Below, in pieces: positions 1,015-14,367 of a DNA stretch of 14,367 bases. Position numbers and translations under genes: made by a program. The first letter of the stretch is position 1. The number at the start of each line of letters is the position of its first letter. Origin of the DNA: a virus (Duplodnaviria > Heunggongvirae > Uroviricota > Caudoviricetes); the IMG/VR virus record IMGVR_UViG_2562617113_000020, positions 1-14,367 of that record, one strand, 5' to 3'. The notes beneath the pieces were generated by a model, which made no database searches, was not told where the DNA came from, and saw nothing but the letters and a program-made list of their open reading frames with translations.

Positions 1015-2586
1015 ATGGACACCTCACTTGCTCATGAGAACGCCCGCCTGCGGGCACTGTTGCAGACGCAACAGGACACCATCCGCCAGATGGCTGAATA
1101 CAACCGCCTGCTCTCACAGCGGGTGGCGGCTTATGCTTCCGAAATCAACCGGCTGAAGGCGCTGGTTGCGAAACTGCAACGTATGCAGTTCGGTAAAAGC
1201 TCAGAAAAACTTCGTGCAAAAACCGAACGGCAGATACAGGAAGCACAGGAGCGAATCAGCGCACTTCAGGAAGAAATGGCGGAAACGCTGGGTGAGCAAT
1301 ATGACCCGGTACTGCCATCCGCCCTGCGCCAGTCTTCAGCCCGTAAACCGTTACCGGCCTCACTTCCCCGTGAAACCCGGGTTATCCGGCCGGAAGAGGA
1401 ATGCTGTCCTGCCTGTGGTGGTGAACTCAGTTCTCTGGGATGTGATGTGTCAGAGCAACTGGAGCTTATCAGCAGCGCCTTTAAGGTTATCGAAACACAA
1501 CGTCCGAAACAGGCCTGTTGCCGGTGCGACCATATCGTGCAGGCACCAGTACCTTCAAAACCCATTGCACGCAGTTATGCCGGAGCGGGGCTTCTGGCCC
1601 ATGTTGTCACCGGGAAATATGCAGACCATCTGCCGTTATACCGCCAGTCAGAAATATACCGTCGTCAGGGAGTGGAGCTGAGCCGTGCCACACTGGGGCG
1701 CTGGACAGGTGCTGTTGCTGAACTGCTGGAGCCGCTGTATGACGTCCTGCGCCAGTATGTGCTGATGCCCGGTAAAGTCCATGCTGATGATATCCCCGTC
1801 CCGGTCCAGGAGCCGGGCAGCGGTAAAACCCGGACAGCCCGGCTGTGGGTCTACGTCCGTGATGACCGTAACGCCGGTTCACAGATGCCCCCGGCGGTCT
1901 GGTTCGCGTACAGTCCGGACCGGAAAGGTATCCATCCACAAAATCACCTGGCCGGTTACAGCGGTGTGCTTCAGGCCGATGCTTACGGTGGTTACCGGGC
2001 GTTATACGAATCCGGCAGAATAACGGAAGCCGCGTGTATGGCTCATGCCCGGAGAAAAAATCCACGATGTGCATGCAAGAGCGCCCACCTACATCACCAC
2101 GGAAGCCCTGCAGCGTATCGGTGAACTGTATGCCATCGAGGCAGAGGTCCGGGGCTGTTCAGCAGAACAGCGTCTGGCGGCAAGAAAAAGCCAGAGCCGC
2201 GCCACTGATGCAGTCACTGTATGACTGGATACAGCAACAGATGAAAACACTGTCGCGTCACTCAGTACGGCAAAAGCGTTCGCATACCTGCTGAAACAGT
2301 GGGATCACTGAACGTGTACTGCAGTAATGGCTGGGTGGAAATCGACAACAACATCGCAGAGAACGCCTTACGGGGAGTGGCCGTAGGCCGGAAAAACTGG
2401 ATGTTCGCGGGTTCCGACAGCGGTGGTGAACATGCGGCGGTGTTGTACTCGCTGATCGGCACATGCCGTCTGAACAATGTGGAGCCAGAAAAGTGGCTGC
2501 GTTACGTCATTGAACATATCCAGGACTGGCCGGCAAACCGGGTACGCGATCTGTTGCCCTGGAAAGTTGATCTGAGCTCTCAGTAA
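1015..2586 (+). pseudogene. tnpC: IS66-family DDE transposase TnpC, reading frame interrupted by four single-base indels (+1 near 2055-2060, +1 near 2185-2189, -1 near 2265, -1 near 2306)
   Basis: 369-aa ORF 1015-2124 ends prematurely; protein-like continuation found in shifted frames ([30 protein letters not shown]..., then [23 protein letters not shown], then [13 protein letters not shown], then LNVYCSNGWVEIDNNIAENALRGVAVGRKNWMFAGSDSGGEH... to stop at 2584-2586); net frame change is zero. Confidence 0.8.
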
Positions 2587-7701: not shown

Positions 7702-8364
7702 ATGCATCGTATAGACACGAAAACCGCGCAGAAGGATAAGTTCGGCGCGGGTAAAAACGGTTTTACCCGTGGTAACCCCCAGACTGGCACGCCTGCTACC
7801 GATCTGGATGATGACTACTTTGACATGTTGCAGGAAGAGCTTTGTGGCGTGGTGGAGGCATCCGGTGCCAGCCTGGAGAAGGGGCGAAACGACCAGTTGC
7901 TTACCGCGCTTCGTGCGCTGCTGTTAAGTCGCAAAAATCCGTTTGGCGATATCAAATCGGACGGCACGGTGAAAACGGCTCTTCAAAACCTTGGTTTGGG
8001 AGAAGCGGCAAAACGGGATGTGGGGACAGGGGAAAATCAGATACCGGACATGGCCTCTTTTGCCAGTGGTGATGGATGGATGAAATTACCCAACGGGAAA
8101 ATCCTGCAATATGGTCGTGGTGCGGTTACGCCGACATTATCGACGCAAACAATGAGAATTACATTCAGCATCCCTTTCCCCAAAAAAGCGGACTGCGCCA
8201 TGCTTACTCATTCTGGTGATGGCGGTGCGCCTTTAGGCGCTGGGCGAGGGTTCGTGATGACTGCAGAAGGCCCAACGTTAACCGGCTTTAATTCTGCTTA
8301 CAGAACGTCATCAACCAGCGACACGGTATCGATGAATTACAGTTGGTGGGCTGTTGGTGAGTAA
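7702..8364 (+). CDS. Tail fibre protein, current orientation (constant N-terminal part 7702-7992 joined to invertible variable part Sv 7993-8364)
   Basis: RBS CGGAG at 7691-7695; 220-aa product; the gix-like crossover site lies inside the ORF (codons ALQNLGLGE), as in phage Mu S and e14 stfP. Confidence 0.8.
7979..8004. repeat. gix/hix-like recombination site (left): CTCTTCAAAACC-TT-GGTTTGGGAGAA
   Basis: 12+2+12 bp site with AAACC/GGTTT symmetry around a central dinucleotide; a 15-bp perfect inverted repeat (7991-8005 vs 9824-9838) is shared with the right site. Confidence 0.75.
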
Positions 8365-9402: not shown

Positions 9403-9838
9403 CAGGCTGCCCTCACGATATAGTTAAATGCGACGTTGCGCGGCCGGGTTTCAGAACCACCAACCGATACCGTAGAAATTGAATTTGCCGTAATAAGTTC
9501 CCCGAAAGCATCAGCCGTAACTACGAACCGACCTCCCGTTGGATCAAAACCTGTTAGCGCATAGTACTTGTCAAACCAGTGCCCATGAGAAGCAAATAAA
9601 TGGTCTTGAGATGTCAACAAACCACGAGAGGAATCCACCCCGCGCCCATCATCCCATCCACGAATAAATTCACCGCGTAAATCAGGCAATTTATTTGTCG
9701 GGTAAGCCTTTGCCAGTTCCGGGTATTCTTCAGCAGAAAAAGCCGCACCATTGCATTTCAGCCAGCCTGTTGGCGGAGTGGCTGAAGGCCACGGAACAGG
9801 CACCCCAACAGGTAATGCTGAGCCTTCTCCCAAACCAA
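9402..9838 (-). CDS. Alternative tail-fibre variable C-terminal segment (S'v), lacking its own N-terminus; would fuse in frame to the constant part after inversion
   Basis: Reverse-strand ORF whose stop overlaps the tfa' start (ATGA); reading frame across the right gix site encodes N-V-G-L-G-E, matching N-L-G-L-G-E at the left site, so inversion gives an in-frame fusion. The 9839-9878 extension with ATG is read-through into the gix-gin spacer. Confidence 0.7.
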
Positions 9839-9850
9839 CGTTTATGAAAA
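9825..9850. repeat. gix/hix-like recombination site (right): TTCTCCCAAACC-AA-CGTTTATGAAAA
   Basis: Inverted copy of the left site; inner half-sites are 12/12 identical, outer half-sites diverge; lies ~55 bp upstream of the invertase start. Confidence 0.75.
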
Positions 9851-9904
9851 TGCAGAAATAACGAGCAAATGGCATCATTCCTGCTTTTGTCAGGGAGATC
9901 TACC

Positions 9905-10459
9905 ATGCTTATTGGCTATGTACGTGTGTCAACAAATGACCAGAACACAGATCTACAACGTAATGCGCTGAACTGTGCAGGATGCGAGCTGATTTTTGAA
10001 GACAAGATAAGCGGTACAAAGTCCGAAAGGCCGGGACTGAAAAAACTGCTCAGGACATTATCGGCAGGTGACACTCTGGTTGTCTGGAAGCTGGATCGGC
10101 TGGGGCGTAGTATGCGGCATCTGGTCATTCTGGTTGAGGAGTTGCGCGAACGTGGCGTTAATTTTCGCAGCCTGACGGATGCTATTGATACCAGCACACC
10201 GATGGGGCGTTTTTTCTTTCATATGATGGGTGCCCTGGCTGAAATGGAACGAGAACTGATTGTTGAACGAACAAAAGCTGGACTGGAAGCTGCTCGCGCA
10301 CAGGGACGAATTGGTGGACGTCGTCCCAAACTTACACCAGAACAATGGGCACAAGCCGGAAGATTAATTGCAGCAGGAACTCCTCGCCAGAAGGTGGCGA
10401 TTATCTATGATGTGGGTGTATCGACTTTGTATAAGAAGTTTCCGGTCGGAGATAAATGA
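9905..10459 (+). CDS. pin: Serine DNA invertase, Gin/Pin/Hin/Cin family
   Basis: Product MLIGYVRVSTNDQNTDLQRNAL...LVVWKLDRLGRSM...RSLTDAIDTS...GRFFFHMMGALAEMERELIVERT...GRIGGRRPK is a near-canonical Gin/Pin sequence (catalytic Ser in VRVSTNDQ); RBS AGGGAG at 9892-9897; 184 aa from ATG 9905 (the ORF track begins at an upstream ATG, 9869). Confidence 0.92.
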   Translation: MLIGYVRVSTNDQNTDLQRNALNCAGCELIFEDKISGTKSERPGLKKLLRTLSAGDTLVVWKLDRLGRSMRHLVILVEELRERGVNFRSLTDAIDTSTPMGRFFFHMMGALAEMERELIVERTKAGLEAARAQGRIGGRRPKLTPEQWAQAGRLIAAGTPRQKVAIIYDVGVSTLYKKFPVGDK

Positions 10460-10516: not shown

Positions 10517-11692
<1,176 letters not shown>

Positions 11693-13124
11693 ATGTCTGA
11701 ATTTGAAGTGTTGGCACAGCATCTGCTGAAGGAAGCCGAGGCGGAAGAAAAGCTGCGACAGGAAAATGATAAAAAGCTTATCGAGAAAGTGCTGGAAATC
11801 TATGATCAGAAGTATGTGGCTGAATTACTGAGAAAAGTCGGAAAAAATGAGTGGAGCCGTGAAACCATTAACCGCTGGATTAATGGCAAGTGTTTACCAA
11901 AATCGTTGACTTCAGTAGAAGAGTCTCTTCTGCGTAAGATGCTACCAGAACCACCTGCAAACCATCCGGAATATGCTTTCCGCTTCATTGACTTATTTGC
12001 TGGAATTGGAGGGATACGGAAAGGTTTTGAGGCCATTGGAGGCCAGTGTGTTTTTACCAGTGAATGGAATAAAGATGCTGTGCGTACATACAAGGCCAAC
12101 TGGTTTAACGATGAACAGGTGCATAAATTCAATCTCGATATTCGGGAAGTCACGCTGAGTGATAAAACCGATGTATTGGAAACGGATGCTTATGCATATA
12201 TTGATGAGCATGTGCCGGATCATGATGTGCTTCTTGCGGGGTTCCCGTGCCAGCCATTTAGCCTTGCTGGTGTTAGTAAGAAAAACTCACTTGGTCGTGC
12301 GCATGGTTTTGAATGTGAAGCACAAGGAACACTTTTTTTGACGTGGCACGTATTATACGAGCAAAAAACCGGCAATTTTTGTGCTGGAAAATGTCAAAAA
12401 TCTGAAGAGCCATGATAAGGGTAAAACTTTCAAAGTCATTATGGAGACCCTTGACGAGCTGGGCTACGAAGTTGCCGATGCTGCAGAAATGGGAAAAAAC
12501 GATCCAAAGATTATCGATGGGAAGCATTTTTTGCCTCAGCATCGTGAACGCATTGTTCTGGTCGGATTTAGACGAGATCTGAATATTCACAAGGGGTTTA
12601 CCTTGCGTGATATCAGTCGTTTTTATCCGGAACACCGCCCATCATTTGGTGAATTGCTGGAGCCTGTAGTCGACAGTAAATATATACTTACGCCAAAACT
12701 ATGGGAGTACCTTTATAACTACGCCAAAAAGCATGCAGCCAAGGGGAATGGTTTTGGCTTTGGGTTGGTCAATCCTGAGAATAAGGAAAGCATTGCACGC
12801 ACACTTTCTGCCAGATATCACAAAGACGGATCAGAAATTCTTATTGATCGTGGTTGGGATATGGCAACGGGAGAGGCTGACTTTATGAATGAGAGTAACC
12901 AGGCTCGTCGACCACGCAGGCTGACTCCCCGAGAGTGCGCACGCCTTATGGGGTTTGAAAAACCTGGAGGGAAACCATTCCGTATTCCGGTTTCAGATAC
13001 TCAGTCATATCGGCAGTTCGGTAACTCCGTTGTGGTGCCAGTATTTGAAGCCGTTGCCAGACTTCTGGAACCCTATATCCTCAAAGCTGTTTCTGCTGAT
13101 GCTGGTAAGACTGGGCAGCCTTGA
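11693..13124 (+). pseudogene. ecoRIIM: EcoRII-like / Dcm-like C5-cytosine DNA methyltransferase (CCWGG family); frame interrupted by two -1 indels in a T7 tract (12333-12339) and an A6 tract (12363-12368)
   Basis: Motif I FxGxGG ([15 protein letters not shown]) and motif IV PCQ ([12 protein letters not shown]) in the first frame; [15 protein letters not shown] and C-terminal [11 protein letters not shown] in a second frame; the intervening frame reads [10 protein letters not shown], so two single-base deletions explain the split (ORFs 11651-12415 and 12381-13124). Confidence 0.85.
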
Positions 13125-13130
13125 GAACAC

Positions 13131-13153
13131 CTCCCGGCCTTTTAAGCCGGGAG
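13131..13153. terminator. Hairpin between the convergent M and R genes (CTCCCGGC-cttttaa-GCCGGGAG); possible bidirectional terminator
   Basis: 8-bp perfect stem between the two stop codons (13122-13124 and 13159-13161); no flanking U-tract on either side. Confidence 0.35.
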
Positions 13154-13158
13154 TCAGC

Positions 13159-14367
13159 CTATGATAGTTCAGCGTAAAGTTCTATCAGCTCAGTAATGAA
13201 TGCTCCGAGCGTTATTAATTCTTCTCTAACTGCTTCTGGGTATTTTTTATGTAAAGTTGATGGTACAACGAGTCTGACACCCGCATCTTTCATTTCTCGG
13301 TATTGTGCTGAAGAAACACCTTCTTGCAGCGTAAATAAATGTACCTGATGGATTTTATCTGCTTCATTCAGTATCTGACGCCAGCGATCTTTGCAGGTGG
13401 TCTTTACTGCCAGCATACGTAAGTTTTCTACAGGAAATTCAACGTTATGATATGCCTCTGCTGAAGGAAACAGGAAATCTGGTTTTTTATTACCTTCAGT
13501 AACTGCCTGAGTGGAGAAATGCCGTAGTCCGTGCTCGATAAAAAGCTTCTCTAGGTGAAGTTCAAGTGATTTACCTGCCCTTGATTTACGTCGATTACTG
13601 ACAGAGTTGGCTAATGCAATAAACTCATCTACAGAATCGAATCCTTTCTTAATAATATCAAGAACATGTAATTCCTCGACGAGTAGAAAAATATCATACT
13701 CGACACGCCGACGGTCAATCAGTTGCTCATCTGGATCCTTGGAGTTTTTAGCATAATGGCCAGCAGCATATTGAATAATTTCGTTTCCAGAAGGAAAACG
13801 CTTCTTCCAGTCTTCAGGAATAACATATTTATGATTTACTGGAGTTTGCTGAAGAGACAATCCGCCCAAAATTTGTCCGGCAGGGCCGGAAATTAGGGTT
13901 CCAGGTATGATTTCGCCAATAGCAGACTCGATGATATCCTCTTCATCGGGATTGACGCAGACCCATATATCTACCTCGGAACAGTCAGTGTTCTGTTCGT
14001 TTAACCTGAAGGCAAGAATTGTGAGGGCTCCTGTATTTTCAGGGTTCTGTAATGGACTTCCTCTCCCCCAGCGCGTAATTCTTTTTTCGCTTCGGGTCTT
14101 ACCAAAATAACGGTTGTTGTAATAAATTGCGCGTGCTTGGGTATCAGGGCAATCATGGGATGATACATGCGCAGTAAGGAAGACTGAAGGGTTCAGTTCG
14201 CGAGTATGATTGATAGATGGAAAAAGCTTTTCAACGATATTTGAGGGGATATAAAGTCCGACCTGATGGCCACCTGTTGCGCCTGTGTCGTTTGCAGAAA
14301 GGCGTTTGATGTAGATAAAGTAATTCCCGCTTGCGATATCAAGCAGCCAGTTATGAAAAACCGACAT
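13159..14367 (-). CDS. ecoRIIR: EcoRII-like type IIE restriction endonuclease (CCWGG), apparently full length (402 aa)
   Basis: Product MSVFHNWLLDIASGNYFIYIKRLSANDTGATGGHQVGLYIPS... corresponds, from memory, to the R.EcoRII N-terminal effector domain and C-terminal catalytic domain; convergent with the methyltransferase as in EcoRII; start codon is the last three bases of the window. Confidence 0.9.
   Translation of the reverse strand: MSVFHNWLLDIASGNYFIYIKRLSANDTGATGGHQVGLYIPSNIVEKLFPSINHTRELNPSVFLTAHVSSHDCPDTQARAIYYNNRYFGKTRSEKRITRWGRGSPLQNPENTGALTILAFRLNEQNTDCSEVDIWVCVNPDEEDIIESAIGEIIPGTLISGPAGQILGGLSLQQTPVNHKYVIPEDWKKRFPSGNEIIQYAAGHYAKNSKDPDEQLIDRRRVEYDIFLLVEELHVLDIIKKGFDSVDEFIALANSVSNRRKSRAGKSLELHLEKLFIEHGLRHFSTQAVTEGNKKPDFLFPSAEAYHNVEFPVENLRMLAVKTTCKDRWRQILNEADKIHQVHLFTLQEGVSSAQYREMKDAGVRLVVPSTLHKKYPEAVREELITLGAFITELIELYAELS

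Follow-up and report, generated by a model that had tools for sequence, protein, structure and literature searches.

Two frame breaks in the EcoRII-type methyltransferase gene of an Escherichia coli T22 prophage are best explained as homopolymer undercalls in a draft assembly

The DNA (cytosine-5) methyltransferase gene of a prophage in E. coli O157:H43 strain T22 is broken, as deposited, by two single-base deletions in neighboring homopolymer runs. We attribute these frame breaks to homopolymer undercalls from sequencing or assembly and not to mutations of the strain, with a probability of about 0.88. The window, by which we mean the whole stretch of 14,367 nucleotides that was analyzed (IMG/VR record IMGVR_UViG_2562617113_000020), is 100% identical to contig AHZD02000023.1 of the 2013 draft of this strain (GCA_000247665.4); its position 1 is position 83 of the contig. 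A nuclease gene next to a seemingly dead methyltransferase looks provocative, as it invites an interpretation in terms of phase variation, a suicidal restriction-modification (R-M) system, or dependence on Dcm, but the arrangement is best explained by the draft assembly. The features of the gene pair are the following.

11693 to 13124, plus strand: DNA (cytosine-5) methyltransferase gene, EcoRII-family and Dcm-like, deposited as two ORFs (11651 or 11693 to 12415, and 12381 to 13124)
12245 to 12253, plus strand: motif IV, Pro-Cys-Gln with the catalytic cysteine, in the N-terminal frame and upstream of both breaks
12333 to 12339, plus strand: T7 run, T8 in intact alleles (CTT TTT TTT, Leu-Phe-Phe, motif V), first -1 frame break
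12363 to 12368, plus strand: A6 run, A7 in intact alleles (GCA AAA AAA, Ala-Lys-Lys), second -1 frame break
12387 to 12395, plus strand: motif VI, Glu-Asn-Val, in the C-terminal frame and downstream of both breaks
13159 to 14367, minus strand: EcoRII-type restriction endonuclease gene, intact, 402 amino acids, convergent with the methyltransferase gene

The N-terminal frame, whether it starts from the ATG at 11651 or from 11693 (the start chosen by PGAP in relatives), terminates at the TGA at 12413-12415. The C-terminal ORF lies two frames away from it, which corresponds to two successive -1 shifts. The two runs are separated by 23 bases, or 24 when counted from the last T to the first A. With one T and one A put back, the reading frame is continuous over 491 amino acids from 11651 or 477 amino acids from 11693, and the exact sequence of the 477-amino-acid product (P0046) occurs on 1000 or more contigs of the protein collection. 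Because two single-base insertions give 100% amino acid identity to a widespread protein, the pattern of the frame breaks is not due to chance. The original prediction, made from the letters of the window, had located the breaks in a T7 and an A6 run between motif IV and the ENV motif. Direct reading and a run scan confirmed both runs, and the PCQ and ENV motifs do flank them. It had also placed the distal two-thirds of the protein out of frame; this was an overestimate, since the first break interrupts the GTLFF conserved in motif V at codon 214 of 477, which leaves about 55% of the methyltransferase out of frame.

Ion Torrent and 454 are flow chemistries in which the length of a run is derived from signal intensity, and long runs often come out one base short. 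The T22 draft is a CLC assembly that combined SOLiD V4 mate pairs with 233,333 Ion Torrent PGM reads (mean 161 nt, about 7.5x) and 73,764 454 Titanium reads (mean 619 nt, about 9x) (PMC3668004). The announcement reports 5,587 ORFs on 4.96 Mb (PMC3668004), a density of 1.13 per kb, whereas the annotation of three closed relatives amounts to 0.96-0.98 features per kb; this excess suggests genome-wide gene splitting. Beyond the genome announcement (PMC3668004), a literature search on T22 turned up nothing informative. That undercalled homopolymers can lead to falsely annotated frameshifts has been documented, as in the case of C. autoethanogenum. Assemblies with such false frameshifts, from flow-based or early long-read platforms, likewise show split ORFs, an excess of called genes, and single-base deletions that are confined to runs of 6-8 bases and come without substitutions; compared at the level of the assembly, we found no departure from this picture in the T22 gene.

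Relative to the intact allele of CFSAN061772, the T22 methyltransferase gene has two deletions and no substitutions. The same signature was found elsewhere on the contig. Two further features served as points of comparison.

1015 to 2586, plus strand: transposase gene tnpC of ISCro1 (IS66 family), split into three ORFs by four single-base indels; internal control
10556 to 10586, no strand assigned: control runs T7 (10556-10562) and T8 (10579-10586) at the 3' end of the LEM-3-like GIY-YIG gene, correct in T22

Positions 1-2616 of the window are a partial copy of ISCro1 (tnpA, tnpB, and tnpC) at the very start of the contig. Over these 2616 nt there are no substitutions and four indels compared to the copy in strain ES5, and a single substitution compared to the copy in 2014C-3057. 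The four indels all fall within 250 bp of tnpC, which is 1572 nt long when intact: A6 in place of A5 at 2055-2060, A5 in place of A4 at 2185-2189, an A lost after 2265, and a G lost after 2305. Four indels without substitutions look like a poor consensus and not like natural gene decay, and the split tnpC is most likely the result of assembly errors. The ISCro1 insertion itself lies 24 bp before the end of the tape-measure gene of the prophage.

The remainder of the compared portion of the contig was clean. In a comparison of 20.7 kb with relatives, the approximately 17 kb outside the indel-bearing parts were free of indels: the tail genes (5.4 kb) and the core genes (8 kb) had none, and the 4.7 kb that run from the invertase to the nuclease gene had only the two under study. 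Two of the eight runs of at least 7 bases in the 20.7 kb were off, and the other six were called correctly; with the platform and the ISCro1 control taken into account, it is plausible that the T22 assembly miscalls roughly 10-25% of runs of this length. The control runs in the GIY-YIG gene are undercalled in several error-prone assemblies of other strains. These two runs are 16 nt apart, and T22 has the majority length for both. Both runs are one base short in six assemblies of other strains, and one of the two is short in two more; the called protein then changes from 257 to 241, 200, or 186 amino acids. The shortening of these runs tracks error-prone assemblies and is probably the same class of artefact.

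We searched 141 bp across the tracts in the 263 complete E. coli records that contain the gene at 99% identity or more. The matching segment spans 143 bases, corresponding to T8 and A7, in 262 of these genomes and 142 bases in one; none has 141. The expected lengths of T8 and A7 were thereby borne out, and these lengths were seen in the loci that were read directly, with T8 in both R12 and CFSAN061772. The combination of T7 and A6 was absent from all 263 complete genomes, as was A6 (0/263), with A7 present in every one that was read directly. The sole complete genome with T7, AH02 (NZ_CP081701.1, L001), carries T7 with A7; its nuclease gene is also frameshifted, which points to the quality of that assembly. 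Among draft genomes and Logan assemblies, the forms of the gene were distributed as follows.

T8 with A7, intact (P0046): at least 1000 contigs
T7 with A7, N-terminal fragment (P0061): 94 contigs
T8 with A6, N-terminal fragment (P0062): 4 contigs
T7 with A6, N-terminal fragment (P0001): 1 contig on record, 2 found (T22 and one Logan contig)

The second contig with T7 and A6 (L004, Logan ERR4087473, 2.2 kb) stems from a different strain, with 29 mismatches. It undercalls six of the seven runs of at least 6 bases that it covers. Because it is full of homopolymer undercalls, we count this contig as evidence for an artefact and not as independent confirmation of the T22 alleles; it is direct evidence that error-prone reads generate the same double frameshift. 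A6 alone was encountered in only one of the loci read directly, in Logan ERR4087909 (L013).

Most of the contigs with T7 alone show further damage. Private homopolymer deletions were found in L007, L008, L009, L011, L012, L020, and L027, and in L022 one more base is missing at a site that is not a run; the extra deletions split neighboring genes or the remnant of the methyltransferase in L020, L022, and L027. The T7-only contigs are thus mostly sequencing errors and not real variants. T7 occurs on at least five SNP haplotypes, two of which have complete-genome twins that are identical except for T8. This distribution indicates a recurrent, independent change and not an inherited one, and a lineage that inherited a pseudogene is ruled out on the same grounds. 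Two chromosome-scale assemblies, AH02 and L020 (GCA_020556385.1, a 4.98-Mb contig), have both the methyltransferase and the nuclease gene split, and in L020 also ratA; both resemble long-read assemblies that were left unpolished and contain many false pseudogenes.

A few T7-only assemblies of other strains do appear clean. The contig L024 (SRR25747498; the same contig was recovered from four samples, L010/L024) differs from NT1F31 by two substitutions over 4.4 kb containing 13 runs of at least 6 bases, and the change from T8 to T7 is its only indel. The contigs from SRR18271655 (L014/L028) and GCA_000409405.1 (L005/L019) look similarly clean, with T7 and A7 and no other indel relative to their complete-genome twins. 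Rare genuine slippage at T8 therefore probably occurs in nature. L024, L028, and L005/L019 are candidates for natural inactivation of the methyltransferase beside an intact nuclease, in hosts that are presumably dcm+.

The repaired methyltransferase has the PCQ and ENV motifs and matches PF18284, the Dcm-type N-terminal domain, at 6.6e-27 and PF00145, the C5-methyltransferase domain, at 4.4e-78; as deposited, the ORF is interrupted. It also matches the Dcm-type structure 3me5 (E 4e-209), and the copy in relatives, 1434 nt long, is annotated as DNA cytosine methyltransferase. The nuclease contains both domains typical of EcoRII, EcoRII-N (PF09217, 5.5e-60) and EcoRII-C (PF09019, 2.4e-71), and matches the EcoRII structure 1na6 over residues 1-401 (E 6.7e-242); the exact protein (P0031) is found on 20 contigs. 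The convergent arrangement of the two genes is shared with the EcoRII R-M system, which pairs a Type IIE nuclease with M.EcoRII and recognizes CCWGG. The repaired enzyme is 90.4% identical in amino acids to a plasmid M.EcoRII-like gene product that has the same partner nuclease, and from this approximately 90% identity and the strong EcoRII match CCWGG is the predicted target of the pair. The pair differs from the plasmid EcoRII systems in that it is chromosomal, located at the ssrA-proximal end of a defective prophage and not on a conjugative plasmid, and its DNA is only about 82% identical to the plasmid copies. The orphan CCWGG C5-methyltransferase Dcm of E. coli belongs to the same family and has the same domain layout (DNA_meth_N plus PF00145), and its sequence from motif IV to motif VI, around the breaks, is identical to that of the window enzyme. 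In contrast, the K-12 Dcm shares only 64.0% amino acid identity overall, its partner is vsr and not a nuclease, and its gene carries T6, without an A run, at the positions of the two tracts. The CCWGG site of EcoRII is also methylated by Dcm, which has been described as protecting against the EcoRII system; because Dcm covers CCWGG, a dcm+ host could keep the nuclease without the methyltransferase that belongs to it.

This protection gives some appeal to the alternative that one or both of the tract changes are real and were fixed by replication slippage in the T22 lineage, which would make the gene a pseudogene. The cell would then survive the intact nuclease through its chromosomal Dcm, and the prophage methyltransferase would be redundant and free to decay. 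We consider a fixed change unlikely, and this account of its survival equally so. Slippage in runs is the most common natural indel, and two indels without a substitution are not impossible. The intact nuclease gene, the shared target of Dcm and EcoRII, the N-terminal fragment with T7 and A7 on 94 contigs, and the clean-looking assemblies in which T7 is the only indel (as in the comparison of L024 to NT1F31, and on several haplotypes) all agree with it. However, among the complete genomes none carries both changes, T7 is found in 1 of 263, and A6 in none. The T22 reads were partly flow-based, and the ISCro1 copy shows the same substitution-free indels, which are not plausibly natural. A second neutral slip at a distance of 24 bp, in 1.4 kb free of any substitution, is much rarer than two correlated miscalls. 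A broader version of this alternative treats the T8 in motif V as a real slippage hot spot that repeatedly switches the methyltransferase off in wild E. coli, with the nuclease left intact and viability dependent on Dcm; the T7 of T22, and perhaps its A6, would be one real case among others. This broader version, too, seems improbable to us. If it were true, the locus would show an R-M system in the process of becoming dependent on an orphan methyltransferase of its host.

Phase variation, in which the two tracts would act as contingency repeats whose length changes at high frequency and toggles the methyltransferase within a population, had been raised by the original prediction as well. It was not supported, and we regard it as very improbable. 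In its favor, the homopolymer tracts do lie inside the ORF, public assemblies include length variants of both, and an OFF state would be non-lethal in a dcm+ host; an in-ORF homopolymer that shifts the frame is shared with the known phase-variable methyltransferases (phasevarions; Type II/III mod genes of Haemophilus, Neisseria, and Helicobacter). In contrast to those systems, the tracts in the window are short (8 and 7 bases) and nearly invariant: in the accurate genomes, T8 and A7 are present in 262 of 263, and the one exception has a frameshifted neighbor. The tracts are not kept as long runs across homologues either, being interrupted or shorter there. The runs reflect synonymous codon choice in a conserved motif; the plasmid M.EcoRII-like gene has CTTTTCTTT and A6 at these positions, and dcm has CTGTTTTTT and GCGCGTCGT. 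The breaks fall in the middle of the gene, and most of the variants stem from error-prone assemblies; the variation tracks assembly quality. Finally, the T7 and A6 state of the window amounts to a net change of -2; the frame stays broken when only one of the tracts is restored, and one slip therefore cannot switch the gene back on. Programmed recoding at the two runs, through ribosomal frameshifting or slippage during transcription, could in principle produce the full-length enzyme from the template with T7 and A6, and transcriptional slippage on A/T runs is known in enterobacteria. We give this explanation almost no credence. It needs two independent +1 events within 30 nt, on runs that are shorter than those known to slip efficiently, and essentially all relatives encode the protein in a single frame, leaving no conserved recoding signal. 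Recoding was rejected on this anatomy and on the absence of conservation.

Undercalling of the two runs remains the explanation that we prefer. It is favored by the platform data, by the ISCro1 indels, and by the population data, given that a real T7 has a frequency of at most about 0.4% and A6 is unseen in the complete genomes. Features expected of such an artefact are present in T22: a flow-based platform, indels in runs without substitutions, and other indels in the same assembly. The original prediction had named sequencing error as one of its two readings, and this one gained support from the Ion Torrent and 454 source, from the substitution-free indels of ISCro1, and from the recurrence of T7 with A6 in an error-laden contig. 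A pair of correlated errors has a far higher probability than a pair of real mutations or a single real mutation combined with one error. Two adjacent local errors fit a stretch of consensus that was set by few flow-based reads. In such a stretch, the few reads that span both tracts would have turned T8 into T7 and A7 into A6; the miscalling of the two tracts in the reads themselves is the inferred step. Several observations weigh on the other side. The assembly included high-coverage SOLiD reads, which have no homopolymer bias and could have been expected to correct errors of this kind. Errors in the T22 contig are not so frequent as to be overwhelming, and the two in question stand strikingly close together. 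T7 is the only indel in at least three assemblies of other strains that appear clean, and real loss of the methyltransferase would be tolerable, since the Dcm of the host methylates the same CCWGG. If the two runs were undercalled, T22 most likely has an intact EcoRII-type pair, composed of a 477-amino-acid methyltransferase and a 402-amino-acid nuclease, at the ssrA-proximal end of a defective Mu-tail/e14-like prophage.

The pair is an ordinary, already known EcoRII-type R-M system on a prophage remnant. For users of the T22 genome, these findings call for caution: neither the split of the IS66 transposase gene nor any frameshift at a run of 7 or more bases should be taken as verified. From the few clean T7-only assemblies of other strains, occasional natural inactivation of the methyltransferase in dcm+ hosts is plausible.

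Besides the LEM-3-like GIY-YIG gene (10517-11290, minus strand), the prophage in the window has Mu-type genes for the baseplate and a tail-fibre segment that is invertible, with a Pin-type invertase. Two 20-nt inverted repeats (7986-8005 and 9824-9843), which are 95% complementary and 1818 nt apart, flank alternative tail-fibre C-termini and tail-fibre assembly genes in opposite orientations. The gene for a Pin/Gin-type serine invertase (9869-10459) adjoins the repeats, an arrangement that is a classic e14/Mu-type invertible host-range segment. A megablast search of the methyltransferase gene against the phage collection gave no match, and hence no phage-borne reference for it. In the window (11651-14367) and in the relatives (L002, L017, L032), the EcoRII-type pair always lies at the prophage end, with ssrA (tmRNA) and smpB as its immediate neighbors. 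The pair is present in about 261 of 5426 complete E. coli genomes, and the version that is approximately 82% identical is found in about 150 plasmid records; the same pair of R-M genes is cargo of two kinds of mobile element.
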